Source: Tubulanus polymorphus (Eukaryota > Animalia > Nemertea). From it: 64,000 nt of DNA. The notes under the pieces were generated by a model, which saw nothing but the letters and a program-made list of their open reading frames with translations, had not been told where the DNA came from and searched no databases. This document shows, piece by piece, positions 4,587 to 53,509 of the stretch (position 1 is its first letter; each line of letters begins with the position of its first letter). The position numbers and the translations under genes were made by a program. The stretch spans positions 7,290,914 through 7,354,913 of the forward strand of contig NC_134034.1 in NCBI RefSeq assembly GCF_964204645.1. Direction: 5' to 3'.

Positions 4587-6212
4587 ATATAGAAGATTGG
4601 GAGAATCATCAATTCCGTAAAGCACATAAAGATAAAATTTCTAATAAATTTGAAGCAGAATTTAATGAAAGAAAAAATAATATATTAGAAAAAATAAAAT
4701 AAGAGAAAAAGTTACCAAATAATAAAGAAACACTTGAAAAGTTGGAAAAACAATATAATGAATTAGTAAGAAAAACATTATTGCAAATATTGTAAATTGA
4801 TAATTAAAACAAGTAATTCAAATCTACATAATATAACAATAATAATAATAATAATAATAAATTGTCATTTATATAGCGCAAGGCTCCTTAAGAAATATAA
4901 GTTCAAATGGGCTCCTCTAGAAACTATAAGTAGCTGGCACGGAATAGAACGGTTTTGAGTGTTCGCTGGAATGATTCACAAGACAAAGACATGGGTTCAG
5001 GTATGTCCGCAAGAAGGTTATTCCACAGTCTGGGGGCATATGTGGAGAATGTTCTGCCACCATATGAAGACAAGCAGAAAATAGGAACAACCAGTCTCTC
5101 CTGATTGGCAGAACGTAGAAGTCTGACAGGTACATAGACTTGTAATAATCCGGATAAGTATACGGGAGCCAGGTTATTCAATGCCTTGGACGTTAACAGA
5201 GCGACTTTATACTGGATTCTTGCAGAAACAGGTAGCCAGTGTAGGTCCTTAAGAACTGGGGTGATATGGTCGAATTTGTGTGACCTAGATACCAAACGTG
5301 CAGCTGAATTCTGGAGAACTTGGAGTTTAAGCGTTAAGTCTGCAGATCCAATTAACAAACTGTTGCAATAGTCGATGCGAAATAGGACTAGTGCCTGCAC
5401 ACACCTGATTATCGTCCGCAAATCCATGGCGGCGCATATCATGTGAATTTATTAGCTCACCAAGAGGCATATAAAGGACAATAAAGCATAAAGAAAACGT
5501 AAGAAAATACCAAGAATTTAATGAAGATCTATTACCAAGATATGATAGAAAAAAATGCAATGTATGTATGTGTACTTAAGACAAGAAGATTCTGTGATAT
5601 TTTGTAATGAATGTGGATGGCAAAAAAATTTATGGGGTGATGAAAAAAACTAGAGATATCATTATAGAACCAAAATTAAAATATCTAGATGAATTTCTTA
5701 AGATATTTTCTATCGAAGATCATACACCAAAATATAAGCAATGGCTTGAAAAAATGAAAATGATAGAAAATAAAAATGTCGAAATAACTAAGAAAGATAT
5801 AAAAAAAACAATTATTCCATCAACATGTAACACAAAAGAAAAGAAAATGTATTTATATTAATTATTTAACGATTAATATAAAAAACCTAAATTAACAAAA
5901 GAAGGTATGGAAAATATAAAAGAAACATTCACAAACATATTAAAATATTATGTGGATAATAAAATAACAGATTCAATTAATTATGAATTCTTTTTAAATA
6001 AGATTGTAAATTTTTTAAACATCGATATTATAATTCCATTTGATGAATTAACAAACAAAAACTAACAAAGAGAGCGTGATGAAATGTGGAATAATATAGA
6101 ATTTTATTTAAAATAAAGAAATAGAGAATAATGAAATGGAAGAACCTACAAAAGTAAATGAATATGAAGAAACCAATGGTGATTTCGAGTATGATGATAT
6201 TGATTTTCTGTT
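4587..6212 (+). pseudogene. Polinton family B Zn-finger/VLTF3-like gene, degraded copy
   Basis: Nucleotide homolog of ~51480-52470; interrupted by LINE, stops and frameshifts. Confidence 0.8.
4838..5477 (-). mobile_element. 5'-truncated L2/CR1-group LINE
   Basis: RIDYCNSLL...LQNSAARLV...HITPVLKDLHWLPV RT C-terminus; (TTA)n tail at 4838-4860; ACAATAA direct repeat at 4836-4842 and 5478-5484. Confidence 0.88.
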
Positions 6213-6669
6213 TTAATGGCCATAAGGTAATGTTTTTATTCCATCACCCAAAATATATCTTTTATCGTCGAATTGATTTAAGCTAGTTTTTTCAACTTCA
6301 TTAATGTACATCTCGTGATCTTCTGATCTTAAACAATTCATTTTATGTTTCATTACAATTGAGTTATATAAACACTTTATATAATCTTGAAATTCTATAT
6401 GTTTATCAACCACATGCTTTGTTATTACTTTTAACTGTTTTGCTTCATGATGCTTTTGTTCTAAAACTATATATTGTACTTCTTATCCCAACAAATTCAA
6501 TCATTTCATCGCCCCCTAATTCATCTTTGAATTTACCAGGAATTGTCTTATTATCATTACTAAATAATTCATGATCTTTTGGATAATTGCTAAAATCAAA
6601 ATGATGTTTACATGTTTTTAAGTCTTTTGTTATATCATTTGTCTTGATTTTTAGTATGTACGCATCCGT
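6213..6669 (-). pseudogene. Protein-primed PolB C-terminal extein (family B)
   Basis: TDAYILKIK...DFSNYP...GKFKDE...EFVGIRS..YS...DDKRYIL....TLPYGH; homologous to 23346-24107. Confidence 0.92.
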
Positions 6670-8050
6670 ATTGACTAGGATTAATGGGAACCCAGAATTG
6701 AATGTTCCATCTTCAGTTGATAAATCATAAACATAATCAGTTGGGTTATATATTTCAAATAAATCTCTAACTTCTTCAATTAACTCATTTTCTACATGGC
6801 TTAAATTAAAGCAATTTGGTTTAGATTTAATCAATCCAATATTCATATTAAAACCTAATGAATTGCATAATATATTTAATCCTCATATAGCAACTTTTCC
6901 TTTTTGTGCTAAGGTTATTACTGGAGATCTATAAAAATTTTTAGCACCATCTGCAGCATACAATCCTATAAAATACCATTTTCTTAAATTATATTTTGCA
7001 TTTGATACATAATCTGGCACTATCTTTTCTTTGGTTGAAGTATTACTTTTCACTATTGCATGAATATAGAATTCATCATTATGTTTTATAGCAAAATCTT
7101 TAGGATTATTCACAAGTATTCTATGAACTGTTGATGATTTCATATGATCCACGATTCTAAATGTTTTAAGTGAATAAACTTCTTCACAGTATTTCTTTAT
7201 TCTTTCTAATTATTTCAAATCTTGATTGCATAAATACCAACAATATTTATTACCACTAACACTATTATACACACTTCCTGAACCATCACCCATAAAAAAT
7301 CCTTAGATAAAATATTGTCAGATAAATTAAAATCAGTTGGGTTATATATTTCAAATAAATCTTTAACTTCTTCAATTAACTCATTTTCTACATGGCTTAA
7401 ATTAAAGCAATTTGGTTTAGATTTAATCAATCCAATATTCATATTAAAACCTAATGAATTGCATAATATATTTAATCCTCATATAGCAACTTTTCCTTTT
7501 TGTGCTAAGGTTATTACTGGAGATCTATCAAAATTTTTAGCACCATCTGCAGCATAAAATCCTATAAAACACCATTTTCTTAAATTATATTTTGCATTTA
7601 ATACATAATCTGGCACTATCTTTTCTTTGGTTGAAGTATTACTTTTCACTATTGCATGAATATAGAATTCATCATTATGTTTTATAGCAAAATCTTTAGG
7701 ATTATTCACAAGTATTCTATGAACTGTTGATGATTTCATATGATCCACGATTCTAAATGTTTTAAGTGAATAAACATCTTCAAAGTATTTCTTTATTCTT
7801 TCTAATTATTTCAAATCTCGATTGCATAAATACCAACAATATTTATTACCACTAACACTATTATACACACCTCCTGAACCATCACCCATAAAAAATCCTT
7901 TGATAAAATATTCTTTTTCTTCTAATGTTTCAGGTTCTCTATTATAAATAGTATCAAATGACATTTCATCAAATGACATATGATCCATTCTTGGGTAAAA
8001 TCTTTTATGTAATAATTCATCTCCAATTTTGATATCAGTTGGTTTTATTA
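6670..8050 (-). mobile_element. LAGLIDADG intein in PolB (pseudogenised, N-terminus lost, internally duplicated)
   Basis: C-terminal splice blocks YVYDLSTEDGTFNSGFPLILVN|T; endonuclease motifs GFFMGDG, KIVPDYV.N, IGLYAADG, GLNILCNSLG. Confidence 0.88.
6735..7911. repeat. ~596-bp tandem duplication inside the intein
   Basis: 6735-7313 repeated at 7331-7911 with few mismatches; ORFs 6883-7152 and 7479-7748 near identical. Confidence 0.92.
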
Positions 8051-9390
8051 TGGTCAAAGACCATATAGGGATCGTTGCTGATAAAAATTCACCGAACGAC
8101 ACCCGTAGTATCTCTACTGCCATGGATATAGTCCTATAATGCTGTACCGATATAGAACTGATAATCCAATAAAAAGTTGTCTGTAACGCGTCATTTGCCT
8201 ATATGCTTGATCCTAGCTGAAAAACTGAAAAGCTGAAATAAAAACGATGACATTTCAGGGAATTTCCGAAAAACGCCGAAATTTCAGGGAATTCCCGAAA
8301 AACGCTGAAATCGTGCTAGGTACCGACAATACACGTTTTGAAATGTTTTCGGGGCCGGTGTCCGCTGACGAGTCCTGAACCGTGTTTTATGCTCTACCTT
8401 GGGTTACAGAGACATGCCTTAAGGTCGTCGTCATGTTCGACTTGATCGATTGCGGATTGGCAATTTGGTTGATGTTTGCCTGTGAACGGAATCTTTTGAC
8501 GAGCTAATGCTATACAGTGTGAGTAGGTTCGAATCCCATTTTGTGCTTCGGGCGCAATTTATACCTACTTTGCGGTCTGTTCATAGCGGGTGTACAATCA
8601 TAGCTTCCAACTGTAATTTCCACTCATGCTACGGTTATTGCCGTTGTTTAATTAAACCCCAGAAGTTTGATTTTTGGTTCTGGCCGTGGAGAATAGAATA
8701 CACGGAATTTAGAGAATTGGACCATCTACCGCCACGACTGAACCTCTAAGTGAAGATCGAAACAATACAGTAATACTTTTTCACGTTTGAAATTTATTTT
8801 ATCAATAAGAAAAATGAATAGCAAAAAACAAAAACTTGACAATAATCAAAATAAAAACGATTTACGTTGCTCAAAAGATTAAAAAATTCGATAAATTCGG
8901 ATCACCAGCAGGGGATGGGAAATTTTGTCAATTGAACGAAATGCGAATAATGTGTTTTCGAACTTAAAAACGTTTTTCACTAGCAAAACGTTTTCTGTTT
9001 GATTTAATTTGATTTAATGTTTCTTTGATTTCTTTGATTTAATGTTATTAATTTACAGTAGGCCTACCGGCCCTACACCAAGACGAAATCATTTTAGAAA
9101 GCACCATGGTGCCTTCTAAAGCCTCACGGAAAATTATCGTAATAAATGGATTCCGTATCCTATATTTACAGTGAATCAAGAGGTTTTAAACCTATATCTA
9201 ATGCACATAGAACCAAAGTCAGTGCGACTTATAATAAAAATAAACTATAAATTATCATGTGAGTTATCATTTGACATCAACCGATATCAGTTTTTGTATC
9301 GGCTAAAGCCCAACGCACACGGCAAAACATTTGTTTAGCCGAAACAAAAAACGTTTTTTTCACGAGGAAAAAACGTTTTTTTTCGGTGCT
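8046..9390 (+). mobile_element. Non-coding interspersed repeat(s), possible Helentron-associated element start
   Basis: T-run followed by TGGTC-aaa-GACCA palindrome where the intein is truncated; GC shift; right boundary uncertain. Confidence 0.35.
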
Positions 9391-9393
9391 GTG

Positions 9394-9796
9394 AGTAATA
9401 GGGAATATGTTGTTTCAGATCAAAGGTCGAACGGTCGAGTTCATTAAAAACAAAACATTAAAAGTAATTTAAAACTATAATATATTTTCATAACCGTGTG
9501 CATTTTATATTATAACTAAATATTTATTCTAAGATATCAATAATTTTAAAAGCATATTGTATTAAATCAATTGGTCGCTCCACTTCGCTACCGCTCCGCT
9601 CCGCGACCAATTGATTTATTTACAATAAACACATTCATATAATCAAATATATTCAAATAATAATAATTATTCTATTATTCAACTGAAATACACACGGTTA
9701 TGAAAATATATTATAGTTTTAAATTACTTTTAATATTTGTTATTAATGAACTCGACCATTCAACCTTTAACCTGAAACAACATATTCCCTATTACT
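9394..9796. repeat. Left terminal imperfect palindrome of family A
   Basis: ~115-bp outer inverted arms AGTAATAGGG.../...CCCTATTACT; inner arms AAATCAATTGGTCGC/GCGACCAATTGATTT around a GC-rich CGCT-repeat loop. Confidence 0.85.
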
Positions 9797-9875
9797 CTCA
9801 AAATATTCATATATATGAATAAAATATAAATGAATAACTTCTAAAATCAATTTTAATAAAAAATTTAGTATTAAA

Positions 9876-11619: not shown

Positions 11620-12285
11620 ATGGAACCAGAACAACCACAAACTATCAATATTACAAATAACACTGGTGGTGTTATAAATATATATTACAAGAAGTGTTCT
11701 AAATGTGAATTAGATAAATCATTAACAGAATTTAGTAAGCGTAAGATTAGCAAAGATGGTTTTCAATATTGCTGTAAAACTTGTACTAAACTATATACCA
11801 AACAATACCGAGAAGATAATAGAGAAGCTTATAATGATTATATGACAGAATATATGAGAGAAAGATATCAAACAGATCTTAATTTTAGATTGAAACAATG
11901 CTTAAGATCTAGATTAACACAATTATTCAACAAAGAAACGCATTCAGAAACACTATCTAATCTATTGGGTTGTTCAGATGAATTTCTCAAATCATGGATT
12001 ATATTTCTATTCGATGATAAAATGAATATAGATAATTATGGGGATTATTACCATATTGATCACGTGTTACCAATATCTAAATTTAACATGAATGATGAAT
12101 ACAATAAAAAACTTATTTGGGGTTGGAAGAATTTAAGACCTTTAGAAAAGAAAGAAAATCAAATCAAATCTAATAAACTAGATTTACAGTTATATTTAGA
12201 TCAACTGGATAAAGCAAAGACATTTGTTGAATTATGGAATTCAACACATAATGAACAATACGTTGAGTCTTTAATGAGTGGTTAA
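11620..12285 (+). CDS. HNH-type endonuclease with N-terminal CxxC zinc motifs
   Basis: KKCSKC...DG.QYCCKTC; HIDHVLP...NLRPL...EN..KSNK beta-beta-alpha-metal motif. Confidence 0.82.
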   Translation: MEPEQPQTINITNNTGGVINIYYKKCSKCELDKSLTEFSKRKISKDGFQYCCKTCTKLYTKQYREDNREAYNDYMTEYMRERYQTDLNFRLKQCLRSRLTQLFNKETHSETLSNLLGCSDEFLKSWIIFLFDDKMNIDNYGDYYHIDHVLPISKFNMNDEYNKKLIWGWKNLRPLEKKENQIKSNKLDLQLYLDQLDKAKTFVELWNSTHNEQYVESLMSG

Positions 12286-13496: not shown

Positions 13497-13502
13497 AATA
13501 AG

Positions 13503-14608
13503 ATGAAAAAAGAACAATATTTAAGAGAGTTATATTATAACCCAGAAAGTGAAGTATCATATTCTAACGTTACAGAATTATGGGGTAAAATTAAATCTGA
13601 TAAGGAAAATGGCAATGGTGCCGTATGGCACCCACATGGTGATATAAAATATAGTGAATTAAAATCATGGTTACAAAATCAACCAACATATCAAATCCAC
13701 AAGAAAATGGATAAAAATTATTTAACAAGAAAAGTTATGGTTTCATATATTGATCAACAATGGCAAGCAGATTTAATAGACATGAAGAACTTAGAGGAAT
13801 ACAACAAAGGATATTTCTGGATACTGAATGTTATAGACATATTCAGTAGATACGCATGGTCAATTCCAATCAAAAATAAAACTGGAATAGAAGTAACAAA
13901 TGCTTTTAAATCTATATTTAAAGAAGCTATTCCAGATAAGATACAATTTGATGAAGGTAAGGAATTTTATAACAAACATTTCAAAAAAATATTATCTGAT
14001 AACGATGTAGATTATTTTTCAACACATTCAGATAAAAAAGCATCTATTATAGAAAGATTTAATAAAACATTGAAAACTAGAATGTGGAAATATTTTACTG
14101 CTAATGAAACATATAAATATATCGATGAGTCTATAAATATATCAGATGATTTAGTGAAAGGTTATAATAATTCTAAACATTCAAGTATTGGTATGAAACC
14201 TATACAAGCTAGAAAAGAAGATAATTCGGAAATAGTTTGGAATAATTTATATGGCGCATTTGTCACACATGATTTCGGTGAACCTAGATTCAAAATTGGA
14301 CAACACGTAAGAATATCTAAATATAGAAAAACATTTTATAAAGGTTATACTCCAAATTTTACAGAAGAAATATTCAAGATTAAAAAGATAATATTAACTA
14401 AACCATTTGTTTATAAATTAGAAGATCTAAAAGACGAAGAAATATTAGGTTATTTTTATGAACAAAAATTATCACTTGTACCAAATCCAGAGGAAATAGA
14501 ATACAAAATAGAAAACTCTTAAAGGAAAAAAGTATTCTTTGGTGAAATATAAAGGATACGATGATAAATTTAATGAATGGATTTTATCTTGTAAAATTAA
14601 ACGAATAA
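13503..14608 (+). CDS. Polinton retroviral-type integrase, C-terminal chromodomain frameshifted
   Basis: WQADLID, IDIFSRYAW, IQFDEGKEF, ERFNKTLK; chromo remnant LVKYKGYDDKFNEWI after 14522. Confidence 0.95.
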
Positions 14609-15220
14609 ATGGAAAAAGATTTATTTATATTTGAACCGCATAATATGTTAGTTACTGGAGTAACCAATTGTGGTAAAACACATTTCATATTAGATTTGTT
14701 AGAAACTATTTATAAGAATCATTTTGATAATATAATATTATTCTGTCCTACTTATGAAATGAATAAAACATATAATAGAGATATAGTTAAGATGAAAAAG
14801 TTTATTATATTAGATCCTAAAACAGTAAAAGAAAATTTAGATAATTGTATAAAAATAGCAATTGATACTTATAAAGGATCAAATACATTATTCATTATAG
14901 ATGATTGCGCAAATTTACATGATTCAAAAGTTAAAGAAAGTGAGTTATGTTATCTAGCTTTCTCTGGGAGACATTTTGGGATAACAACATGGGTTTTAAA
15001 TCAAAAATATAATTCAATTGTTAAAGACTTTAGGGAGAATATAAGATTTCTAGTTTTATTTTATAACAAAGATAGAAAATCTATGCAACAATCATTGGAA
15101 GAAAATCAAATTATACCTACTGAGTTACATGATGAATATATGAATAAATTAAAGAATAATAAAGGTTCAAAATTATTACTGAGATTACAATTTCCCTATG
15201 AATATAAATTTATAAAATAA
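14609..15220 (+). CDS. A32/FtsK-like DNA packaging ATPase
   Basis: Walker A GVTNCGKT, Walker B FIIDD, GRHFGI arginine-finger motif, conserved Q. Confidence 0.93.
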   Translation: MEKDLFIFEPHNMLVTGVTNCGKTHFILDLLETIYKNHFDNIILFCPTYEMNKTYNRDIVKMKKFIILDPKTVKENLDNCIKIAIDTYKGSNTLFIIDDCANLHDSKVKESELCYLAFSGRHFGITTWVLNQKYNSIVKDFRENIRFLVLFYNKDRKSMQQSLEENQIIPTELHDEYMNKLKNNKGSKLLLRLQFPYEYKFIK

Positions 15221-16323: not shown

Positions 16324-17572
16324 TTAATACATAACACTATCTAATTGTGAATTTACAATATTTAATTGCGCGTCAGATATAATATAAATGTGCATTTTGA
16401 AATTTAGACTTCCTTTTTTCTTTGTCATGAATAATTGTATTCCATCTTTAGTGTTTTGTAATTTTTTTCCAGAACCATGTAATGAATTATCCTCTGTTGT
16501 TCTAAAATCTAACCATAATGCATATTTATTACCGGTATAATAATCAATTTGATTAATGTTACAATTTTCAGATGATTTCACTTTTTCATTCATAAAATGT
16601 TTTCTAATTTCTGGCCATTGATCAATCATTCTCATTCCTTGACAAAATATTTTGTTTGCTATTCCTTCGATAGTTATTTCTACTTTTGTTATTTCAGGAT
16701 TATAATACTTATCAACTTGTATTGCACCATTAGAATATGTTGCAATGGTAAAAAATATTAATATACCTTTAATAGATCTTCTTGGGAAGTTAATATTCTC
16801 ATTAATTATTTCATCATTTGCATTAATAGTTACAGTTTTAAATTTATCAATATAATCATATAATAATAAAAATCCTTGATTGTATTTAGTTTGAATTATA
16901 CTTGCAATATTTTCATCAGTTACTGTATCATATTCTAAACATATATTCGATAATTTATAACTCATATCTTTAACAACGCTAGATAATACAATTTCATTTA
17001 CAGGAGCAAATGTTATTTCGAATATAACGTCTTCTTGAATTGCGTATTTATATAAAGGTGCATTATTATTTATCAATTCAAAGTCTCATGGAATTTTATA
17101 TTTGCTTCCATAAATCTTTTTTATCAAATTATCTGCGGTACGAGTTACTATTGCGTCATTAGCTCCTGATCTTAATTTATTTTGGTTTTCTGATTGGATG
17201 CCTTGAAATATCATATTATTTCTATTTTCTTTAGTTAACCATAAATCTTTATAATGCATAAATAGATTATAATCATCTAATGAGAAAACTGTTTCTGGAC
17301 CAATCTTTATAGTTAACTTTTTTAATCAAATATCTTCCAACATTATCAACAACATAATTAATATCATGACCTGTTAATTTTATATCAGCTGATAAATAAA
17401 TACTATTTGGAACATAAAAAGTATTTTGTGTTAATCTAGGAATTCTAACATATAAAGTTTCATCGGGATTAATATTAGAAGGGTTATGAGTAATTATATG
17501 ATGTGATCTTTCTGCTTTAATAGCATTAGATATTCTATGATTCTTCGAAGGATTGATATAACTCCCACTCAT
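16324..17572 (-). pseudogene. Major capsid protein (putative double jelly-roll), frameshift and stop
   Basis: ~415 codons, beta-rich; HNPSNINP..LYVRIPRL, LWLDFRT..D..LHGSG, YIISDAQLNI motifs recognised from invertebrate Polinton-like MCPs; further copies at 48250-48800 and 52631-53480. Confidence 0.75.
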
Positions 17573-23316: not shown

Positions 23317-24293
23317 TTATAATACATATTTTTATTAGAATTTGATTAACACGTTAGAATTCTTTTCATTATCTCGTTCTCTTTTGTTTCTTCTCTTTTA
23401 AATTTTAAGTATTCATCTAAATTACAACCATAAGCAACTGTATGAATTCCATCATCTAAAATATATCTTTTATCATCAAATGGGTTTTGAATTATCTTTT
23501 CAATTTCTTCAATAAACATTTCATGATCTTCAGATCTTAAACATTTCATCTTATGTTTTCTAACTTCTTCATTGAATATACAATTGATGTAATCTTTGAA
23601 ATGAATATTCTTTTCTACTACACTTTTGGTTATTCCTTTTAACTTTTTAGCTTCATGTTCTTTAGTTTTATATGAATACATTTTAGATCTAATACCTATG
23701 AACTCTATCATTTCTTCACCACCTAATTCATCCTTAAACTTCCCTGGAAGTTTTTTATTATCATTGCTAAACAATTCATGATTTTTAGGATAATTACTAA
23801 AATCAAAATGATGTTTTAATGCTTTTAAATCATCAGTTATGTTATCAGTTTTTATCTTTAATATGTAAGAATCTATATCAAAATATAATATTTCTATATG
23901 TTTTTCTCCAAAAAGTGGTTGTAATATATTATAATAGAATTCATACATTAGTAATTTTGATAATTCTAAAACTGAAGCGCCAACATAGATTGGTTTATTA
24001 AATTTCATTGATGTTCTTCTCATTTTAACTGCAGCTAAATTTTCATCAAATATTCTGTTACCAATGAACTTTAGGATATGTTTGTAAATGTCTAATTCTT
24101 TTACCATTACTAACTAACTCAATATCATTTCTATTTCTAATATTTTCACAAGTCTTACCATAGAATGCATTATTCATTAACTTGAAGAAATCTTTCTCAA
24201 AATCAGTTTTAGCTTCAGTTCTCTGTTTGGTGTTAAAATCTATATATTTTTCTAACCACTTAGATTGACTAAATGAAATATATCTATGTACTT

Positions 24294-26531
24294 TTTAGGC
24301 CAGCCGTAGGCTGAGCCTATTACTATACAAATGGAGCGAATTTAAATGACATGGTTTCCACACAAAAGGCTCTTTTGCTTGCCAAGTGAGGGCATATTCG
24401 AACAAATCACGTATTTAAGCGTAATCCATTCTCGGAATCGTAGCGAGCAGAATTTTGAAATAGGGTCTCATAAAAATGTTTTCTGCATTTTTCACGAAAG
24501 TTAAATCGGGAAAATTTCAATTTTTATCAGCCAATCAGGAAGTTGTGTCTTCCCTGTGATTGGTTTATCTGAAAATATCAGCAGCTGTTCACGTGAATTA
24601 TCGCGATTTCATTACTGGCGCTTTTGCGCATGACGTCATGTATCAACACGCGACAATACTTCCGCGTTCGCTACGTGTTCGCTGATTGGCCCATTTACTG
24701 GGAAATTCCACAGAAGCCTAATGTGGTTTGTTACAAGCGCTGTGATTGGCCCGACCCGATTCTGGCATGGCTTTAGCTTAGTGGGTTCGAATCCCTTGAC
24801 GGGTGAAGATGATGGATCCTATCAATATCTATTGAAACAAATAAGTTTCCCGGTTGGGCAGCCGCGGATATCTACCGGAAGTGTTCCGGTTCGATATTTC
24901 GAGGTTTCTTTGAATTTTGGAGTGATATTGAAATCCGGTAAATACCAGCGGTAGATTGTGAAAACCCATTGCATGATATTTGTATTACTTAATCAACGAA
25001 AAGCGTCGGGGCCGCGCCAGGAGTTTTCGTGATTCAAGTAGCGCAATAGCCTACTTCTTCGTGTTCGTCCACCTCAATTTTTACTCCGCCGATCTCTGAC
25101 ACGGCTCTGTCCCCGTCGGCGCTGTGATTGCACTTTCGTACCACCAAAATTTTTTATTTCTATATCAGGGAGGTCTGGAGAATAAAAAAGTCAAAATTTG
25201 GATATCACATAGGCCTGATTTCATCGAATAAGTCGACCATGGTCGTTACGTTTCCGTACTTATTACCACCTAAAACCGTCTGAACAATTTTGTCACAACC
25301 AACATTTCGTTTACAGAAATCAGGTGTTCACGTGAATCCGCGATATCGTCTACTGTTTTACTTCCGGGTTTTATTTTAAGGTTTAAAATTGTATTTCAAG
25401 ATCGATTTCTATGAAATCTTTAGTTGATTTGGTGTTTGGGAGGAATTTTTATTTGCTCTACAGAAAATTCATCCTTGACAATTGCGCAAGGTTCGCGAAA
25501 AAAAGGTTTTACCAAATCGGGTGTATGACCTTGATATGCTAATTAGCCATGTGCCCGAATTGCAAATTCAATCAAATTTTATTCTGCCAAAAAATGTTAA
25601 ATACAATTCGCTTTCCGAGAGTTAATGGTATGGTGATGGAACAAAGTTGTTTTGAGATGGGTCTTGAAGCTATTGAGGTCGAGAGATAACCATCTAGATA
25701 GTTCGTGTTAGTTCCAAAGTTTTGAAGACGCTTCAAGGTAATGTCTTGATATTTGTTTTATACGTGTATCTACCCTAGACACATCTTCAGGCCAAAAACT
25801 GGCCCTGTCAGATTCAAGATGGCCGACTGGCAGCCATTGTTGTTCGCCAAAATCAGCACTTTTTACACATTTTTGAAGTTTTCGAGGGAAATTTTGAAGA
25901 CACTTTTATCAATAACCTTGATCATTCGTATATATTTGTAGCCCCCAAGGGCCCATCGGCATGAGAAAAATTGAGTCGATCGGACTCAAGATGGCCGTAC
26001 TGTGACCTTTTTTGTTCCCAAAAATGTCAATTTTGGCCTGAATTCTGAGTACTGTAGCTTTCTAATGGTGCGCCATGTTTCATTGCAATTTGTAATGGGT
26101 ATTCTTTGGAAAGGGATCTTTTATATCCGAGAGGGTATTTTTGACCAGGCAATTATGACGCACTTGGCAGCCATCTTGGGGTCATCAGTACTCATTCGTA
26201 GGTGGAAAAAAAGTTTTTCCACATCATAATTGATACTTAAGCATATTTTGCTACTATAATCAATTGGAAAGTTGTAGCTCATGACATGTTCTATGATCGA
26301 GGTGAGTTTCAAGCTCATTGGTTTTTTTATGGCCACCAGGGGGCGTTGAACAATACAATAACTTAGTATTTCTATATTACATTCGTTCCTGCTGTCTGTG
26401 TTAACACACGATTTTACTATGTAAATGATATTGAGCAGGGAGTGTATATTGATAAATATAACCCACAGATTACATCATTTATAAAAAGCAAATCTGACAG
26501 GCTGGCCATTGTGCCCCTTGGGGCTCTTGTT
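24294..26531 (+). mobile_element. Helentron-associated non-autonomous element (HINE/DINE-like)
   Basis: Inserted in a T-run within PolB (GMILK|KVHRY); subterminal IR GGCCAGCC/GGCTGGCC; 3' hairpin GCCCC-tt-GGGGC followed by TCTTGTT. Confidence 0.78.
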
Positions 26532-29500
26532 TTAGGATCATTCCTTGTTTTAGATAAAACTTTAACATTCTATAGTGTACAACATAATTATATTTATCTT
26601 GTTGAGTTACCATTAACTTTTCTGTACGAATATGATTTTCGGGTTTAATTCTTTTTTGATACTTTGATAATTCTTCATGAGTTACATTTTTATGTTCGGG
26701 ACAGTAAGCTAGATTTCTGGATTTAAATTTAATATGTTCAGGATATTCTAAATCTACAACAAAGAAGTAACCAGTATCTGAATCATCTGCAATATCTAGG
26801 ATTCTTTTCTTCCAATCAAATTTATCATTATTTTCATTCTGTAAAACTTCAGTTAATTCAAATACTCCATAAGGTTGTGATTCCATCATTGCCCAACCAT
26901 ACAAATTATTTGCATCTATATATAATAATTTATATCCAGGGTTATCATTTACATTGAAATATCTATCACCTAATACACCTGAAACTCCTCCTCTTATAGA
27001 TTTTTCAAATAAAAATAATTGATCTATATTTGTTAACAAATCCATTTTTATATCTGTAAATTTTAATCCACAATCCCATGTTAAACCTGGTGATGAATAA
27101 CAATGACATGGATCAATATTGAAATATTTTAGGTTTACATCTCTAAACCTTTCAAATATATCGGTTAATAATAATACATCTGATTTTAGATATAAATCTA
27201 CTAATTGCCCATGATTTTCTATTTTGAAATGATTCCAAATATTCAATGTTCTATTATATACTTCATCTTTAACATATTCATTTTTTAATTCATCATAGAA
27301 TTGTTCTTTCAATAATTCAGTTATATTGAAATCATTATGTGATTTATAAAATGAATATGGAATTGCGCCTTTATATCTCATTAATTGAAAATCATCATTA
27401 TTTGGGTAGTGTTGCTTTAATATTTTCAATTCATCATCAACTAATGATTTTGATAAGTTATCTAATGAACTATTTAAAAATCTATATGAATCTATAAATC
27501 TTAGGCATCCAAATTGGAAAGATATATAATTCGCAGATGTTTTAGCTAACATTCTAAATTTATAAGTTGGTATTTTATCTTTTGATCTATTTGAATTTAA
27601 TCTTTCTATTTCATTATTAATTCTTCTATTTTATGGCATAACTGTTTGATAAATAAATGTGCATCATATCCTGATAGATTATGAAATATAACTGGTACAA
27701 AATTAATTTTCTTAGCTTGTAAGTTACAATTCTCATGTGCAGCGCCTCTCAACTTTCCGTTCAAATGATCATGGTCTCTTACTTTTTTATCTTTAAAATT
27801 AAATATCTTTTCACAATAATAACATTTATCTGCAAACGCAAATTCTTCTTTATCTTTTTCTGTCATTATAATTTCTATATTTGTATTCAATAATTTACTA
27901 AATCTTATTTCATATTCAATTAATAAGTCACAAAAATGATTAATAACATTTTCATTTCTGTAATGATAATATTCACTTTCAATTAGTTCTGGATTATCAG
28001 ATTTAATATATAACCCGAAAGCTGCAGCTGATTGATGAATCTTTTTAATAGTATTTGTTTTTGGTGGTTCATCTGAATAATCATTTTCATTAGAATTTAA
28101 TTTCTTTCTTTTATAATATATTTCTTTTCTATCTTGATCAGTTAATTCTTTATTTAATGATTCAAAATCTGAATAATCATTTTCATTAGAATTTAATTTC
28201 TTTCTTTTATAATATATTTCTTTTCTATCTTGATCAGTTAATTCTTTATTTAATGAATCATAATCTTTTGATAGATATAAAGGTTCTAATGTATAATGTT
28301 TTATATTGTTACCTTTTGTATTTGGTAATTTGATTAAATCAAATACATTTATCTTTATATTATTATCTCTTTCTATTTTTGGGATGTTTTTAATTCTAAC
28401 AGGATACTTATCTATCTTATAATTATTTTCAAATGGTTTATAATGAGTTAATCTAAAACTATGTGTAATATCTTCTGTTGGATGTAAGCAACTTATAATT
28501 GTCCACAGAAAACATTTATCATCTTCATTTTGTACATTAATAACAGCATTAGTTGTAAATGGTAGTTTAATATAACTCGATGCTTCAATATCTGGTTCTT
28601 TATAATATGATACATTATTTTCATCTATTGGTTTTGATTTAGTTAACTTATTATATTTTGTGTTATAAACATGTAAAGTCATAAATATTATTTCATCAAA
28701 TATTAAACCAGATCCTTCAAAATATTTCTCTTCTATTTTAGTTTTTACTTCATTATAACATTTATCTAATTTATCATCTATATGTTGTTTAGATATAATA
28801 TGTTGTGAATGAGAATTTATATTATATATTGGTTTATCTTCAGATTTTATAAACTTAACTTTAGAAGATATACTTATTTTAGGATATTCAACATCAGTTA
28901 TTATTTTTATAATATTTTTCATATTTTCTAAATGTTTTTTATTTTCTTCTAATGTTTTTCCTTTATGCAATTTAAACTCGATAGCTGCTGGACCAATATC
29001 ACTTTTAAATGCTTCGGTTATCTCTATATCTTTTTTATTATCTAATGAATTAATATAATTTCTTACATCTTCCATGTATGGCCTTTTATTGTTTAATTTA
29101 TTTTTTATGCTTTTAATTGTCTTCTGTTTCTTATCATTATCTTTATCAAAATAATCTTCACCTAAAATAACATTATTCATATTTCTAATATGACTTTTAG
29201 ATTTTAAATGTTCTTTATAATATCTTTTATCACTGAATGATTGATTACATGTATCACATTTGTATGTTTCTTTTTCATTCTTTAATTCATCTAATTTAGT
29301 TTCTAATATATCATCTTTATATTCTAGTTTCAATTTATTCTCTAAATGTGTTTTACTTTTATTGTGTCTTGCTTTTTGGGATTTATCTATATTGATATTA
29401 CCATGTTGGGCAGTAGTACTTATTTGTTTCCATTTTAATATCAAATTTTTTTTTAAATTGATTTTTAGAAGTTCAATGATATATAGGCTCAAATAGAATC

Positions 29501-29557
29501 ATGTTCTAGTATAAACAGCTATGCATTATTTCAATCACACTTTAATAATATTTTAAG

Positions 29558-29775
29558 AGTAATAGGGGTAATGGGCTTTCATATCAAAGGTTGAATGGTC
29601 GAGTTCATTAAAAACATATATTAAAAGTAATTCAAAACTATAATATATTTTCATAACCGTGTGTATTTCAGTTGAATATTATTATTATTTGAATATATTT
29701 GATTATATGAATTTGTGTATTGTAAATAAATCAATTGGTCGCGGAGCGGAGCGGTAGCGAAGTGGAGCGACCAAT
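29558..29775. repeat. Internal copy of terminal palindrome half (marks tandem duplication of right end)
   Basis: Reverse complement of ~9570-9796, sitting between two PolB N-terminal copies. Confidence 0.85.
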
Positions 29776-31463
29776 ATAACCCGAAAGCTGCAGCTGATTG
29801 ATGAATCTTTTTAATAGTATTTGTTTTTGGTGGTTCATCTGAATAATCATTTTCATTAGAATTTAATTTCTTTCTTTTATAATATATTTCTTTTCTATCT
29901 TGATCAGTTAATTCTTTATTTAATGATTCAAAATCTCCATATATAACAAATGGAACTTTATTTTTGTAATCATATTTTTTGAATTCTAATATTTTATCTT
30001 TTTCATTTGGTAAAACTAATTTACAATAATCATGATTTTCACATAAATGTTTATGATTAAATAATGTACTTTCATTACTGAATCTATGTAAACATTTTCT
30101 TCAAAGATATATTTTATGGTGATCATTTTCTGATTTAAAAAATAAATCTATTTGTTTAATCCACATATAATGATTTTCATAATATAGTATATCTATAACA
30201 TCGTTTGAATCATAATCTTTTGATAGATATAAAGGTTCTAATGTATAATGTTTTATATTGTTACCTTTTGTATTTGGTAATTTGATTAAATCAAATACAT
30301 TTATCTTTATATTATTATCTCTTTCTATTTTTGGGATGTTTTTAATTCTAACAGGATACTTATCTATCTTATAATTATTTTCAAATGGTTTATAATGAGT
30401 TAATCTAAAACTATGTGTAATATCTTCTGTTGGATGTAAGCAACTTATAATTGTCCACAGAAAACATTTATCATCTTCATTTTGTACATTTATAACAGCA
30501 TTAGTTGTAAATGGTAGTTTAATATAACTCGATGCTTCAATATCTGGTTCTTTATAATATGATACATTATTTTCATCTATTGGTTTTGATTTAGTTAACT
30601 TATTATATTTTGTGTTATAAACATGTAAAGTCATAAATATTATTTCATCAAATATTAAACCAGATCCTTCAAAATATTTCTCTTCTATTTTAGTTTTTAC
30701 TTCATTATAACATTTATCTAATTTATCATCTATATGTTGTTTAGATATAATATGTTGTGAATGAGAATTTATATTATATATTGGTTTATCTTCAGATTTT
30801 ATAAACTTAACTTTAGAAGATATACTTATTTTAGGATATTCAACATCAGTTATTATTTTTATAATATTTTTCATATTTTCTAAATGTTTTTTATTTTCTT
30901 CTAATGTTTTTCCTTTATGAAATTTAAACTCAATAGCTGCTGGGCCAATATCACTTTTAAATGCTTCGGTTATCTCTATATCTTTTTTATTATCTAATGA
31001 ATTAATATATTTTCTTACATCTTCCATGTATGGTCTTTTATTGTTTGATTTATTTTTTATGCTTTTAATTGTCTTCTGTTTCTTATCATTATCTTTATCA
31101 AAATAATCTTCACCTAAAATATCATTATTCTTATTTCTAATATGACTTTTAGATTTTAAATGTTCTTTATAATATCTTTTAAAACTGAATGATTGATTAC
31201 ATGTATCACATTTGTATGTTTCTTTTTCATTCTTTAATTCATCTAATTTAGTTTCTAATATATCATCTTTATATTCTAGTTTCAATTTATTCTCTAAATG
31301 TGTTTTCGTTTTATTGTGTCTTGCTTTTTGGGATTTATCTATATTGATATTACATGTTGGGCAGTAGTACTTATTTGCTTCCATTTTAATACTAAATTTT
31401 TTATTAAAATTGATTTTAGAAGTTATTCATTTATATTTTATTCATATATATGAATATTTTAAG

Positions 31464-31638
31464 AGTAATAGGGAATATCTTGTTTCATATCAAAGGTTCG
31501 CACACTCGAATTTATTTTTCATTTTATATGAGTTTCACTCCTAATTCAAATAGAAATTATTATTATTTTCATATTTTTCATTTTTTAATGAGCTCGACCT
31601 TTCGACCTTTGGTATGAAACAAGATATTCCCTATTACT
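31464..31638. repeat. Right terminal palindrome of family A
   Basis: AGTAATAGGGAATATCTTGTTTCATA...TATGAAACAAGATATTCCCTATTACT. Confidence 0.85.
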
Positions 31639-34203
31639 CACCAGTCAGCCCCGGTAGCTCGATAGGGATGGAATTTAGCTGGGGATTTCAAACCTTGAGA
31701 GAGAGCACGGGAGTTCTTAATCTGGATACCAGGGCGATGTACGGGTTCCCGGGTTGTTTGGGATTCAAGAACTCAGGCAGGGGTGTCAAACAGCCGAGGC
31801 GTACACTAGAGGGCCGGGATTTCCGGCTGCGGAGTTTTTTTTTAGAATTTTGATTTCTAATGCAGAAAAGCCGGCGATCTAGCGGGCGGTTAACATAGTT
31901 ATTTTTTCTGCAGGCAGTGAGTAACCGGAACTCCGGCTCCTGAACACCAGGCCGTTTTCAGACCAAAGGAAGACAAGAAATAGCATAATATTATGAACTT
32001 GAACAGTTTGATATCTTTTGAAAATCTTTTGATTTGAAAAACTTTGTCGCCTGCGGGAGAGGAACGGCCGGCGCGCCTAGGCCAGGGTGTTCACAGTATG
32101 GCCTAATATCGTTGTGTCCGGTCCAGGTGTCCATTATCCAAAAGAAATATATTTCTGGTTTGAATAAAATGTTGACTATGTTGGTTTCATATAATTGACG
32201 ATGACTGTACGAGTCACCGTATTAAACGATTTATATGCAGTAAATATTGAAAAAACATACACTGCGGTGGCGCTAGCGGACGGACACCCGTACTGTAAAT
32301 AAGTCGTATCTCGCATGTCATATGTCGTATCTCGTATGTTGCATCTCATATCTCGTATGTTATATCTCATATCTCGTATGTCGTCTGAGGTCTTCCATAA
32401 TATTCCGATATATATTTGCGTTCATGTTTGTCCGATGAAGCTTATTCTTGTATATCGACCTCCGCCGATAACTACACAATTGCCGTTGATCTACTGAAGT
32501 CACGATTTGGGGAAACTTCGCGCTTAATATCAGCCTATATGAAAGCTCTATTAGAGTTAACCGAGCCATCTAATACCGCAGCTAGCATTCGAGCATTCTA
32601 CGATAAGCTTATTTTATATGTCCGATTGCTCGAAGGTCTTGGAAAAACTCCAGACAGTTATGGTGAATTATTGATTCTGGTCTTGCTTGAACGGTTGCCA
32701 GTCACATTAGTACAAAATATGACCCGGGGTCGGAATTCGACTATTTGGTCATTCCCGAATTTATTAATATGCTTAAAGAATGAATTGGATATACTTGAAT
32801 TATGTAACAAAACCTCTGTAAAGCCTGATTTTGAAGCCTCTGTGTTTATTGCATCAGGGCAGGTGGATAAATATCCGTTTTCTTCTCGAAATTGTGTATA
32901 TTGTGGAGCGAAACACTCATCTATAAATTGAATAAAATATGATGTAGAAGCCAAGGTGAAATTTATACGAGAAAATCGTCTTCGTTTCAACTGTTTACTT
33001 ACAGGACATATATCCCTTAACTGTAAATCAGAAACTAGGTGCAAATTTTGTAGGAAAAAGCATCATAGCAGTATTTGTGTTTCTAATAATTCTAATTCGG
33101 TAGGCTCGAACGATCATAAACATACTCAAAATTTGCAACTGGGTTCACCGGCGCGTAGCCAGAATCATAAAGGCCACAATAGTTCTCTACATAAAGTTGG
33201 TCCTCAACGAAATAATGTTTATTCAACGCCAAAGGTTGACAGATCGACTCAATGTTCTCAGCGTTTTAATAATTGTGTTCTTTTAAAAACGGCTGTTATT
33301 CATGTTTTTAGCAAAGATTATTCAACTGAAATTGGCGCTTTATTTGTCGACGGTTCTCAGAGGACGTTTGTCAATAGATCTTTGGTTGATTTTTTAGGCT
33401 TGAAACCCATTCGAGCTGATCAGATAAATATTACTGGTTTTGGTGGTGTCAATTCAAATCCACAAATCCGTTGTCTGGACGTCGTCAGTTTAAAGGTCAA
33501 GTGTACCGATCAATCCATAATAAACATTGAAGCTTTAGTGGTGCCACAAATAGCACAACCTATTAATCTTGGTGATAGAACCATACTTAAAGATTACAAT
33601 TATCTACAAGGTTTAATCTTAGCTCATCCTATTGATGATGATGAGACATTTTCAATTGATTTATTGATAGGTTGTGATTTTTATTACGATTTTGTTATGG
33701 AGTATCAGATCCGCCCGGATAATAAGCTATGGTCCTATTGCGTTAGAGTCCAAGGTTGGGTATTTTGTTAGTGGCCCTGTGGCGGATTTTTCTCAAACTA
33801 GCATTTCTTCATTTCTCAGTACGTTAACAACGCTAGATGACACTGAGGCGACCCAGTACCATGATTTTTGGACTCTTGAATCCCTAGGCATACAGCATCC
33901 CGATGACTCACCTGAAACCTCGGCAGTTTATGATTATTGCGAGGACCTTTTGACTTATGACGCTGATCGAAAAAAATACATAGCCAGATGACGGATACTA
34001 TGACAAGAGTAAGACAAGGAGTTTGGATTCCCAAATTAAGACAGTTAACTAAGAAAGTACTCAGTAAGTGTATAACCTGTAAGAGAGACCAGGGTAAACC
34101 TTACTTATATCCTGACCCTCCTCCGTTACAAACCTATAGGGTTTAAGATGCTCCACCTTTTTCGGTTACGGGAGTTGACTACACGGGAGTTATCTATTGT
34201 AAA

Positions 34204-35190
34204 ATGAATACTGTATCGTACATTTGTTTGTTTACGTGCGCTTTGACGCGTCGCATTCATTTAGAGGTTACACCTGATTTATCAACACACTCGTTTATGT
34301 TGGCTTTTAGAAAATTTTGTAGCCGTCGATCAGTCCCTAGTCTTATGTTATCTGATAATGCCACAACATTTGAGTGTAGTGCTAGTATTTTAAAGAAATT
34401 ATGTCAAAGTGATGATATTGTGAATTACTTATCAGCTAAATCATGTGAGTGGCGTTTTATACCGAAAAGAGCCCCTTGGTTTGGCTGTCTATGCGAACGT
34501 TTAATCGGCATGACAAAACGCTTATTTAAAAAAATGTTGAACCGAAATAAATTAGATCGTGATGAATTAACCGCTTTGGTCGTCGAAATCGAAGCCATTA
34601 TGAATGATAGACCTTTAACGTATGTTCCAAGCGAGATAAATGAACCCAATCCAATTACTCCGTCTCAGTTGTTCCAGGGAAGACGCATATCCACGGTACC
34701 GTATCCGATTGTAGATGTTGAGGATATACGAGATGCAGATTTCAACGAAGATATTACGCGATCAAGGGCTAAACACCGTCAACACTTCGTTAAAAGGTGG
34801 CAACAGGAGTGCTTGACCGCTTTGCGCGAATCTCACGCACGGTCAGGAACTAGAGAAATTTCAGTGAAAATCGGGGACGTAGTTCTGATTCATAACGATG
34901 GACCGCGAATCGCGTGGAAACTTGCGACAGTAACTAAACTTAATTTCGGTGCCGATAACATCGTTCGTTCTGTACAACTTAAAATGGCTACAGGGGTCAC
35001 CAACAGACCTCTCATAAAATCATATCCGTTGGAGATCCGTGCCGACCGATCGTTTAATTTAGAAAACCGTTCGGAGGATGACGATAGTGTACGTGAGGAA
35101 CGTTCGCCGCGCCCGCAGCGCCGTGCTGCCGAAATAGCACGTCAGAGGATCAGACAAACCGCGGAGCACCGTGAAAGCGAAAGCGATTAG
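34204..35190 (+). CDS. BEL/Pao integrase core and C-terminal domain
   Basis: CLFTCALTRRIHLE, SDNATTF, EAIMNDRPL, IGDVVLI. Confidence 0.88.
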   Translation: MNTVSYICLFTCALTRRIHLEVTPDLSTHSFMLAFRKFCSRRSVPSLMLSDNATTFECSASILKKLCQSDDIVNYLSAKSCEWRFIPKRAPWFGCLCERLIGMTKRLFKKMLNRNKLDRDELTALVVEIEAIMNDRPLTYVPSEINEPNPITPSQLFQGRRISTVPYPIVDVEDIRDADFNEDITRSRAKHRQHFVKRWQQECLTALRESHARSGTREISVKIGDVVLIHNDGPRIAWKLATVTKLNFGADNIVRSVQLKMATGVTNRPLIKSYPLEIRADRSFNLENRSEDDDSVREERSPRPQRRAAEIARQRIRQTAEHRESESD

Positions 35191-40555: not shown

Positions 40556-40566
40556 AGGATTACAAT

Positions 40567-40679
40567 AGTAATAGGAATAATAGGGGTTCAAGCCAAAGGT
40601 CGAAAGGTCGAAAAATAAATTCCGCACACTCGAATTTATTTTTCGACCTTTGATGTGAACCCCTATTATCCCTACTACT
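40567..40679. repeat. Terminal palindrome of a third, family A-like Polinton end
   Basis: AGTAATAGG...AAAGGTCGAAAGGTCGA...CCCTACTACT followed by the same leader as 9800-9876. Confidence 0.8.
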
Positions 40680-40749
40680 CTTAAAATATTCATATATATG
40701 AATATGAATAACTTCTAAAATCAATTTTAATAAAAAATTTGATATTAAA

Positions 40750-41442
40750 ATTGAAGCAAATAAGAAGTACTTCTGTCCGTCAGAACAACCACAAAGCAAA
40801 GATATTACAAATAATAACGGGGTTATAAATATTTACTACAAGAAATGTTCAAAATGTGAATTGAATAAACAATTCTCGGAATACTATAATTATAAAACTC
40901 AGAAAGATGGTAAGCAAAATTATTGTAGAACTTTTGTTAAGGAAATTAATAAGCAATACCGAGCAAATAACCCAGATTAACAAAAGGAATGGAGAGAAAA
41001 TCACCCCGAATATATGAGAGAATGGAGGGATAATAATCATGAACATTTTAATGAATATAATAAAGAAAGATATAAAACGGATCTTAATTTTAAAATGCAA
41101 CAATGTTTAAGTTCTAGATTAACAAAATAATTCAGTAAAGAAGCGCATTCAGTTACACTATCTAATTTATTGGGGTGTTCAGATGAATTTCTCAAATCAC
41201 GGTTTATATATCAATACGATGATAAAATGAATATAGATAATTATGGTGAATACTTTCATATTCATCACGTGTTACCAATATCGATATTTGATATGAATGA
41301 TGAATACAATCAAAAGATAATCTGGAATTGGAAAAACCTGAGACCTCTTGAAAAGAAGGAAAATATTATGAAAGGAAATGAACTAGATTTAGACTTGTAT
41401 TTAGACCAGTTGGTTAAAGCAAAGACATTTGTTGAATTATGA
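40750..41442 (+). pseudogene. HNH endonuclease, degraded paralog of 11620-12285
   Basis: GCSDEFLKS...HIHHVLP...WKNLRPLEKKEN. Confidence 0.82.
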
Positions 41443-41903
41443 AATAGTCTTCCACAGAACGAAAAATACGTTGAATCTTTATAAACGCCCGATAATACTC
41501 AGCTATATAGCTGGTCGTATTAGCTCTAGTTTGGTAAACATCTGTTACCAGCTTACATTTCAATTGTAAAGAATTAATTAATTTCATTAAGCCTATAAAA
41601 GAACAGCTGTCACCAGCGCTGAATGGCACCGGACAGTGCCTGGATGTATTGAGTCATAGTGAATTACCGAAGGCGCAGATCATTCTGGAACGTGCACCCG
41701 AACCGAACAGACGGCATATACAGAACGCATAGGATATTCTCTCTCGAAACACAATTAGGAGTTACAGTTCTAAATGTAAGTACCGTTTTTGTTGTTATTA
41801 AGACGTCGGGAAACGTTAAACATGTTTAAGTGCTGTAATTCATATTCGACAACTACAACTTCAAGTAAGTTTTATTCTACATTCTAGATATTTAGTAAAG
41901 AAA

Positions 41904-44737: not shown

Positions 44738-45290
44738 ATAAAAAATAAAAATAATGAATATCTAGAATCCAAAATGACCTTAGTCGTTTTAAAAACAACT
44801 ACAATCATACAGTCAAACATTTGTTATATGTTATTATAAGAGAGTGCTTCATTTGAATATTGATCAATCAAACAGGTGTTGCACAACGTTGTTGTTATAT
44901 TGGATAGCTAGCAGTTTTATAATAAGCACGCAGTACATACAACACACACAAGCCAGTTAGCCGGCATTGAACTACCACGTTTTCATTGGTTGCTGAAAGC
45001 GAGGTTTATTTAAATTAGCTATTACTATGTTAATTGATTAACAAATTCAAATTCAAATATTCATTTTAGCATACTCAGTGCTGTCATCTTTCAATTTAAG
45101 AAAAAACTAATAATAAGAAACGACTGTAATACAATATTCAAGTAAAAACAAAATAAATTAATAAAAATAATGAATATCTAGAATCCGAAATGACTTATCT
45201 GGACAATTTAATTGCTCCGCATAGATAGACAAAAGTAGTGAGATATTCAATTAATTAAAAAAATTATTTTTTTTGCTTTTTTCTAAAATA

Positions 45291-45644
45291 TTAATCCATT
45301 TTCTTTATTATCAATTTTGGAATTTCAGAAGTATTTTCATTTTTGATAGCAGTTGTTTCAGAATTATTAATATTATGAATTTTATTTGATTTCTTATACC
45401 AATTACACCCAATCAAAATGAATACAATTACAAATCCAACTGTAAAATATAGACATTTATCAAATATTCTATCATTAGAAGGATTAGAAATAACAATATT
45501 TTCACTATTTTTATTAACATTTTTATTACTTATTTTTTCTTTTACAGCTTTTTTATATTCTTGTGATTTAATTCCTAATTGCCGAGACCATTCAATTTGT
45601 TTCTGTGATCTCGGTTTTTTCTTCACTTCTTCCACCTCGCTCAT
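45291..45644 (-). CDS. Small basic TM protein
   Basis: Homolog of 13128-13496. Confidence 0.7.
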   Translation of the reverse strand: MSEVEEVKKKPRSQKQIEWSRQLGIKSQEYKKAVKEKISNKNVNKNSENIVISNPSNDRIFDKCLYFTVGFVIVFILIGCNWYKKSNKIHNINNSETTAIKNENTSEIPKLIIKKMD

Positions 45645-46182: not shown

Positions 46183-46209
46183 TTATATAACAAAAAAATT
46201 ATTTGTGAT

Positions 46210-46480
46210 GTTGCAACTACTAGAATTCAACTAGAATGTAACTAGAATTCAACTAGATTAACAAGCTAGTTGAAATATTGTTATTTTTGTTTATTTCTTG
46301 TTAAATCTAGTTGATTTTTGTTCCAACTACCAATAACTAGAATTCAACTAGAATGTAACTAGAATTAAACTAGATTAACAAGCTAGTTACAATATTGTTA
46401 AAATCTAGTTGAATTCTAGTTACAACTACCAATAACTAGAATTGTAACTAAATATGTAATTGATTAACAAACTAATTGAA
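46210..46480. repeat. AACTAG-rich short-period repeat/palindrome cluster
   Basis: Repeated AACTAGAATTC/AACTAGAATGT units and inverted CTAGTTG; shorter inverted copy ~55240-55410. Confidence 0.8.
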
Positions 46481-46481
46481 T

Positions 46482-48218: not shown

Positions 48219-48249
48219 TTATATATCGTTAATTTTAACTTTATATTTC

Positions 48250-53480: not shown

Positions 53481-53509
53481 AAAGATAAAGTTAAAATTAA
53501 GGATATATA

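Follow-up and report, generated by a model that had tools for sequence, protein, structure and literature searches.

A dead, truncated and duplicated intein lies in motif C of a Polinton protein-primed PolB (pPolB) in the 64-kb stretch of DNA analyzed in this study, referred to as the window. The Polinton intein clade to which it belongs likely goes back to a single capture from a giant virus and has likely moved by homing between Polintons, and the account as a whole is regarded as probable with considerable confidence. On the minus strand, positions 8048-6670 encode the last 73% of a LAGLIDADG intein, which passes through an Asn|Thr join into the C-extein of the polymerase. All motifs quoted in a preliminary description of this DNA were located on the minus strand in the order it gave. 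Its central proposal, that motif C (pol-c) of a protein-primed Polinton PolB hosts an intein whose LAGLIDADG domain has two motifs, is borne out by intact relatives, fold, and tree.

The relic and its Polinton surroundings

The relic is arranged in two tandem copies. Copy 1 (7331-8048, minus strand) reads IIKPTDIKIGDELLH...GFFMGDGS...MKSS...GFYAADG, comprises the end of the N-terminal Hint part and both LAGLIDADG motifs, and corresponds to amino acids 97-329 of the intein of the intact relative P0003 (tblastn, 54% identity, E 1e-72; P0001 when stops are read as X). Copy 2 (6670-7316, minus strand) repeats these motifs and continues through block F (YVYDL) and block G to the end YVYDLSTEDGTFNSGFPLILVN|TDAYILKIK, with the terminal Asn at 6672-6670; together with the extein, and with stops read as X, it is designated P0002. 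In a self-BLAST, the 596-bp tandem duplication aligns 6735-7316 with 7331-7912 over 582 nt at 98.3% identity. Searching the window with P0003 by tblastn returned the two copies at E 1e-72 and 5e-92 with 54% identity, so the likeness is not due to chance.

Two in-frame stops are common to both copies, at 7808-7806 and 7481-7479 in copy 1 and at 7212-7210 and 6885-6883 in copy 2, and therefore predate the duplication. The differences between the copies all alter the amino acid (10 out of 10), as expected in the absence of selection. Copy 1 is 5'-truncated at about 8049, and neither the N-terminal 96 intein residues nor the N-extein were found by tblastn anywhere in the 64-kb window, so that block A Ser/Cys1 and block B TxxH are missing through truncation. 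The block F Asp, the terminal Asn, and Thr +1 are retained (YVYDL...LVN|T), which agrees with the splice junction described earlier, and GFFMGDG, MKSS, and GFYAADG preserve the two-helix pattern of the LAGLIDADG acidic motifs. The penultimate residue is Val, which occurs in no other pPolB record compared and may reflect decay. With two stops per copy, the duplication, and the missing N-extein, no continuous frame includes both exteins; what the window preserves is a dead relic, not a working intein. A free-standing or intron-borne endonuclease was excluded, as Hint blocks F and G continue in frame into the extein.

Profile searches of the relic gave faint signals. Pfam LAGLIDADG_3 matched at E 0.0024 with 18.5 bits, below its cut-off of 22.5, the Pfam Intein_splicing profile did not match the relic, and the NCBIfam scan gave a weak match only (E 0.036). 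A sequence search of the PDB yielded four matches, all at E 0.13 or above and none significant. In place of the 5' part of the intein stands GC-richer sequence at 8050-8540 (43% over 8050-8460), of which 8226-8540 is a very high-copy repeat in the reads of organism A.

The C-extein (6212-6669, minus strand) starts with Thr (TDAYILKIK), can be followed by tblastn up to amino acid 1689 of P0003, and contains a stop and a frame change near 6430-6460. It is followed by Polinton sequence 3' of the PolB (5471-6211, minus strand), which is 85.4% identical over 920 nt to a second Polinton remnant at 51722-52630. This Polinton flank downstream of the intein-bearing PolB is interrupted at 4843-5470 by a tail that we take to be LINE-like, in which an ORF (4924-5448) had no Pfam match. 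The relic also matched P0004, an RNA-primed PolB with an NCLDV-type intein, with 32% identity and E 3e-26, as an endogenous giant-virus PolB fragment beside Polinton debris would. However, the match to P0004 covers essentially the intein alone, while the residues after the Asn are those of a pPolB, with 78% identity to the pPolB P0167 over 74 columns and 72% to P0161 across the junction, and the C-extein continues into the Polinton flank. The pPolB C-extein refutes a giant-virus fragment, to which virtually no probability is assigned.

A further pPolB, family A, lies in pieces at 23346-31426 on the minus strand (PF03175 E 9.8e-10; tblastn), interrupted at about 24300-26480. Its motif C is empty and reads YFD|IDSYILKIK at junction 23877/23876, with no insert and Ile as the +1 residue, just as had been reported. 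Its designation as an empty allele had to be given up, since family A is only 74.7% identical at the nucleotide level to the C-extein of the intein copy and thus represents a paralogous family. Family A carries an internal 1.2-kb duplication (28254-29473 and 30206-31424, 98.4%) of an age similar to that of the intein duplication, and large inverted duplications link 45147-48625 with 53103-56532.

A Polinton rve integrase (13497-14522, plus strand; PF00665 E 3.2e-9) with 44-46% identity to pPolB-adjacent integrases in loci L001 and L002, and a packaging ATPase of the A32 type (14609-15220, plus strand; PF04665 E 4.9e-12) were identified nearby. Polintons/Mavericks (adintoviruses; PMC8502044, in part) share the pPolB, integrase, and ATPase with the window, where all three occur in neighbouring remnants and are not linked with the intein copy as one intact element. 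A capsid candidate at 16327-17085 had no Pfam match and a model pLDDT of 36. Comparing the window with itself revealed no clear terminal-repeat pair bounding the intein copy, the remnants being scrambled. The window is a Polinton graveyard of 21-27% GC amid retrotransposons near 40% GC, and Gypsy, BEL/Pao-type, Harbinger-type, and LINE-like remnants are also found. One LTR retrotransposon remnant (32401-35190, plus strand), with PF03564 at E 2.9e-15 and PF18701 at E 1.9e-15, is presumably of the BEL/Pao type given these two domains.

Imperfect AT-rich palindromes with arms 82-96% complementary occur at 9390-9800, and related ones at 29319-29775, 31562-31641, 40564-40682, and 46219-46424. They adjoin pPolB 5' ends, have very high read depth in organism A, and are possibly a high-copy hairpin element of Polintons. 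A free-standing ORF at 11620-12285 (plus strand), with a second copy at 40781-41481 (74% at the nucleotide level), has a Cys-rich start and a weak HNH_4 match (E 0.035) and may represent another selfish nuclease, the second of these Polintons.

Intact relatives at the pol-c site

Searching longer proteins with P0001 returned two of 1528 candidates. P0003 is a 1693-aa pPolB (PF03175 E 5e-17) with a 354-aa intein, YGD|SVT...ISN|TDS, 54% identical to the window, and P0004 carries an insert at the same site that is 37% identical to that of P0003. A search with the P0003 intein gave 1302 matches among 2604 candidates, and the best 120 of these 1302 included five pPolBs (P0003, P0007, P0017, P0021, and P0022), the remainder being PF00136 proteins except for P0015. 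Further fragments came from a search of representatives, in which the best 150 of 545 matches at E <= 1e-30 were examined, and from a search of shorter proteins, in which 43 of 1205 matched, P0161 among them. Altogether, pPolB-type intein stretches were present in 81 of 383 collected proteins, two of these being the window's own. No relative turned up when viral contigs were scanned with P0001 (23 candidates) and with P0003 (57 candidates), and a pPolB alignment search gave three loci (L001-L003), none with an intein match. A junction-pattern search gave no hits in viral contigs or prokaryote genomes and one in metagenome contigs, L005, a pPolB with a 340-aa intein and two in-frame stops. The atlas search with the intein recovered generic viral LAGLIDADG/intein clusters only (0.91-0.93).

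Both junctions were contained in a single ORF in 22 records, many of which are near-copies from few clusters. The N-side junction was YMD in 17, SSD in two, and YGD, YLD, and ASD in one each, so the N-terminal junction YxD|S that had been predicted from the relic does occur in intact relatives (YGD|S in P0003). P0021 and P0022 lack the motif-C Tyr, their N-exteins ending in SSD or ASD, but are otherwise intact pPolBs. The insertion point lies within the catalytic YxD|TDS motif, which is thereby split. Blocks A, B, F, and G are in frame within the host protein in P0003, P0007, P0017, P0021, and P0022, and the five aligned full pPolB inteins retain Ser1, TEDH, the block F Asp, the terminal Asn, and Thr+1. 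Both LAGLIDADG acidic motifs are kept in the intact relatives; P0007 has Glu and P0022 has Asn in place of the block D Lys.

Pfam matched P0003 with Intein_splicing at E 4.5e-7 and LAGLIDADG_3 at E 5.8e-7. Six pPolB records scanned with the Hint profile PF14890 matched at E 2e-9 to 1e-5, with P0007 alone over the curated cut-off (Intein_splicing 37.7 against 35.8 bits) and P0003 and P0021 below it. An AlphaFold model of P0003 residues 1141-1693 reached a pLDDT of 79, and its top PDB matches in Foldseek were TliVMA (7qsu, E 1.9e-18), PhoVMA (7qst), PI-PfuI (1dq3), and PI-SceI (1vde), with E-values ranging to 7e-10. These solved intein-endonucleases have the same two-domain Hint plus LAGLIDADG fold, but are only 12-19% identical to P0003 and belong to other host proteins and sites. 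Among the top nine rows of a BFVD comparison, seven were named NCLDV DNA polymerases.

Nuclease inserts are known from Polinton pPolBs, where they are of the HNH or VSR type (PMC10748475 and PMC11071308, both in part), in contrast to the full Hint plus LAGLIDADG within motif C reported here. An unspliced, permanently fused nuclease domain, like the HNH/VSR insertions of nematode and mollusc pPolB2 (PMC10748475, in part), could also account for the absence of the penultimate His in several relatives. Such a domain would leave the two motif-C aspartates about 350 residues apart. Every splice-junction residue is conserved in records that share about 43-47% identity with P0003, and the fold matches Hint plus LAGLIDADG. 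The missing His is ordinary for this group, as Lys-Asn is the commonest ending in viral site-c inteins; of the 232 that end in Asn, 123 have Lys and 91 have His before it. A fused nuclease is therefore considered very improbable. On sequence and modelled fold, the family would qualify by every test as a pol-c class-1 intein with a LAGLIDADG endonuclease.

The site is that of the PolB inteins of Nucleocytoviricota (Mimivirus R322) and of archaeal PolI position III, YGD|TDS, as pol-c is defined in PMC549080 (in part). The likeness to pol-c inteins extends to size (337-354 aa compared with 351), Ser1, the terminal Asn, Thr+1, TxxH, and two LAGLIDADG motifs, and the Polinton inteins are 30-42% identical to the listed inteins of RNA-primed PolB. 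Unlike in Nucleocytoviricota, the host protein is the protein-primed PolB (PF03175) of an integrating Polinton and not an RNA-primed PolB (PF00136).

Some of the collected records hold more than one intein. The RNA-primed PolBs P0005, P0008, P0010, and P0060 have two tandem inteins within motif C, spaced by the two residues TD, and P0018 has an intein at the second motif-C position only. Several of these PolBs also carry one at an SAN|S site. P0015 is a 1897-aa protein (PF00204/PF02518), presumably a type II topoisomerase, with two related inteins, one of them at a DQD|S...N|TDG junction.

Giant-virus kinship and probable spread among Polintons

A total of 305 intein stretches was extracted and 299 were used for FastTree after six near-duplicates were dropped; 90 rows chosen from the FastTree groups were analyzed with IQ-TREE. 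The rows were gathered by likeness to P0003, the tree was rooted at the midpoint, and archaeal and Mimivirus references lay outside the row set. All 11 Polinton-type inteins, including P0274, an intein fragment without extein, formed one clade in the 90-row tree (100/99), with which FastTree was concordant and which, as far as the tree goes, fits one capture event. The sister group of this clade consists of 27 rows of RNA-primed PolB inteins (98/94), and the two are nested together in wider site-c groups (100/97 twice). The Polinton inteins group with site-c inteins, apart from those at other sites. Within the sister group, P0044 matches with 100% identity a contig of GVMAG-M-3300020169-51, which is listed as Imitervirales IM_01, Mesomimiviridae (PMC8575486, in part), and a named virus was thereby assigned to one of the 27 sister rows. 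The proposed kinship with giant viruses is upheld, as the nearest non-Polinton relatives are inteins of giant-virus RNA-primed PolBs. The choice of Mimivirus as the closest model is unsupported as stated, the sole named sister member being of IM_01 and Mimivirus lying outside the alignment.

The nesting of the Polinton clade points to a giant-virus donor. Forcing the 55 enclosing viral rows together cost 30 log units (p-AU 0.028), for a group that was named post hoc. A reverse transfer of the pol-c intein, from Polinton-like viruses to Mesomimiviridae-like ones, or a derivation of both from an unsampled third pool, would agree with the long stem leading to the pPolB clade (0.61) and with a p-AU that is modest and obtained on a midpoint root without an archaeal outgroup. 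Against this, the pPolB clade lies within three widening, well-supported groups of RNA-primed PolB inteins, and diversity is much greater among the viral inteins, with 236 site-c rows compared with 14. The reverse direction is thus judged to be quite unlikely, and because the nesting is post hoc and the tree lacks an archaeal outgroup, a giant-virus donor is likely and not proven.

Over the stretch compared, the window copy is 41-70% identical to the top pPolB rows and at most 38.6% identical to viral inteins. Because its nearest kin are other Polinton inteins and not viral ones, an older transfer out of giant viruses would have been followed by spread among Polintons. The jump from NCLDV to Polintons put forward in the preliminary description is likely; its placement in this genome is not supported. 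The intein appears to have crossed between two polymerase families whose DNA around the site matches at just 13-14 of 18 bases (11 of 18 for L001). Ordinary homing would require more similar flanks, which makes a rare, non-standard event the probable means of the first capture; direct homing over such distances is called implausible in PMC549080 (in part).

Filled and empty alleles were compared in the cluster of P0007, which has 136 members. Among the best 15 of 136, seven were filled (1537-1539 aa) and five empty (1121-1193 aa), three fragments being left out of the comparison, and the exteins were 94-99% identical to P0007. The contigs that carry these 15 members range from 57 kb to 1 Mb. 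All 10 fixed differences between filled and empty alleles fall within -6 to +44 of the site, with none elsewhere in 1191 residues. Divergence between filled and empty alleles was 0.17 and 0.12 in the two site bins and no more than 0.031 in 20 bins upstream. Confinement of the divergence to the site is the pattern that homing with co-conversion by a foreign donor would be expected to leave, but escape mutations in the empty alleles could produce it as well. In a C-extein tree of 31 rows and 156 columns, from which P0017 was excluded as a long branch, the 16 filled rows formed no single clade (p-AU 2.4e-5) and required at least four state changes. Repeated loss could also scatter the filled exteins, as change counts do not separate gain from loss. 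Judging from these sequences, intact relatives likely still splice and spread between Polintons.

We infer a course of events that involves splicing, cutting, co-infection, and an animal host. The precursor polymerase would splice by the class-1 route, with an N-O shift at Ser1, transfer to Thr+1, and Asn cyclisation, which would restore motif C. Once released, the intein would cleave the unoccupied motif-C site of a second Polinton genome sharing the nucleus, and repair of the break would copy the intein plus some flank. The first capture may have taken place from an Imitervirales-like virus in a shared cell, through a rare event of the microhomology type. Integrating Polintons would bring the intein into animal chromosomes, where the window copy would have decayed.

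Host genome and known inteins

Four runs of one study on organism A contained 15-26% of the sampled window words, a share that may mean that organism A is another individual or a relative. In the genomic WGS raw-read run X5, of which 12% was read, reads covered the whole intein, most at 90-99% likeness. The uncalibrated depth was roughly 200 for the single-copy part of the intein and roughly 380 for the C-extein. In copy 2, one base of the first stop codon differed from the window in 84 of 85 and 72 of 72 reads, and contigs from X1 and X3 continue past 8049 with letters that differ from the window. The read likeness, the differing stop base, and the contigs past 8049 together indicate that many other, differently preserved copies exist.

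The host of the window is likely an animal, mainly because of the BEL/Pao-type domains, BEL/Pao being called metazoan in PMC3118150 (in part). The intein and the Polinton could be real and the host a protist, an alga, or a mixed assembly, which would extend the intein world of protists and giant viruses and leave intact the rule that metazoans have no inteins. Endogenous viral polymerases with inteins do occur on nuclear scaffolds of Klebsormidium, Tetrabaena, and a labyrinthulid (PMC10710043, in part), and the relatives found here stem from metagenome collections without a host label, the sole label being that of P0296, a symbiont MAG from a Ctena clam. A non-animal host is nevertheless unlikely, as the window holds Gypsy, Harbinger-type, and LINE-like remnants beside the BEL/Pao-type domains, reads of one genomic WGS run are present in 30 of 30 bins across the intein and the sequence on either side, and P0296 was filed from a clam symbiont record. 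The algal and protist cases are alike in nuclear entry by integration and differ in their hosts from the multicopy Polinton in a likely animal; Polintons, Mavericks, animals, and metazoa had no matches in the available text of PMC10710043.

The literature covered, outside of which lie most subscription journals and Repbase reports, yielded no account of a Polinton pPolB with a Hint-bearing intein. The word "intein" occurs zero times in the available main text of PMC10748475 and PMC8502044. One sentence in the available text of PMC11071308 suggests nuclease inserts in polinton pPolBs as intein invasions, with no Hint domain there, and PMC12220804 and PMC5718144 (both in part) offer a general treatment only. 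A eukaryote-wide survey recorded inteins in fungi, algal plastids, and NCLDVs (PMC5784728, in part), and a 2021 review described metazoan genomes as free of inteins, which forms part of the case for intein-targeted drugs (PMC8529194, in part).

A clade of inteins in Polinton polymerases would be an exception among animals and add a new host class, the protein-primed polymerases. We lean slightly toward a living, mobile family of true inteins in animal chromosomes, derived from one giant-virus intein that jumped to a Polinton pPolB and still homing in germ lines. If true, the statement that metazoan genomes have no inteins would be overturned, and the clade would record, as a molecular fossil, that Polintons shared cells with Imitervirales in the way virophages do. 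It would provide independent evidence of a meeting of Polintons and giant viruses in one cell and bear on how Polintons replicate. With filled and empty alleles in one family, homing is directly testable.

Polinton pPolB pieces were also present under bacterial names, namely P0296, P0321, P0324, P0328, and P0334 (Thiodiazotropha MAG from the Ctena clam; Bartonella), and probably represent host DNA in those assemblies. P0296 bears the intein, and the Bartonella-labelled P0321 and P0328 are empty.
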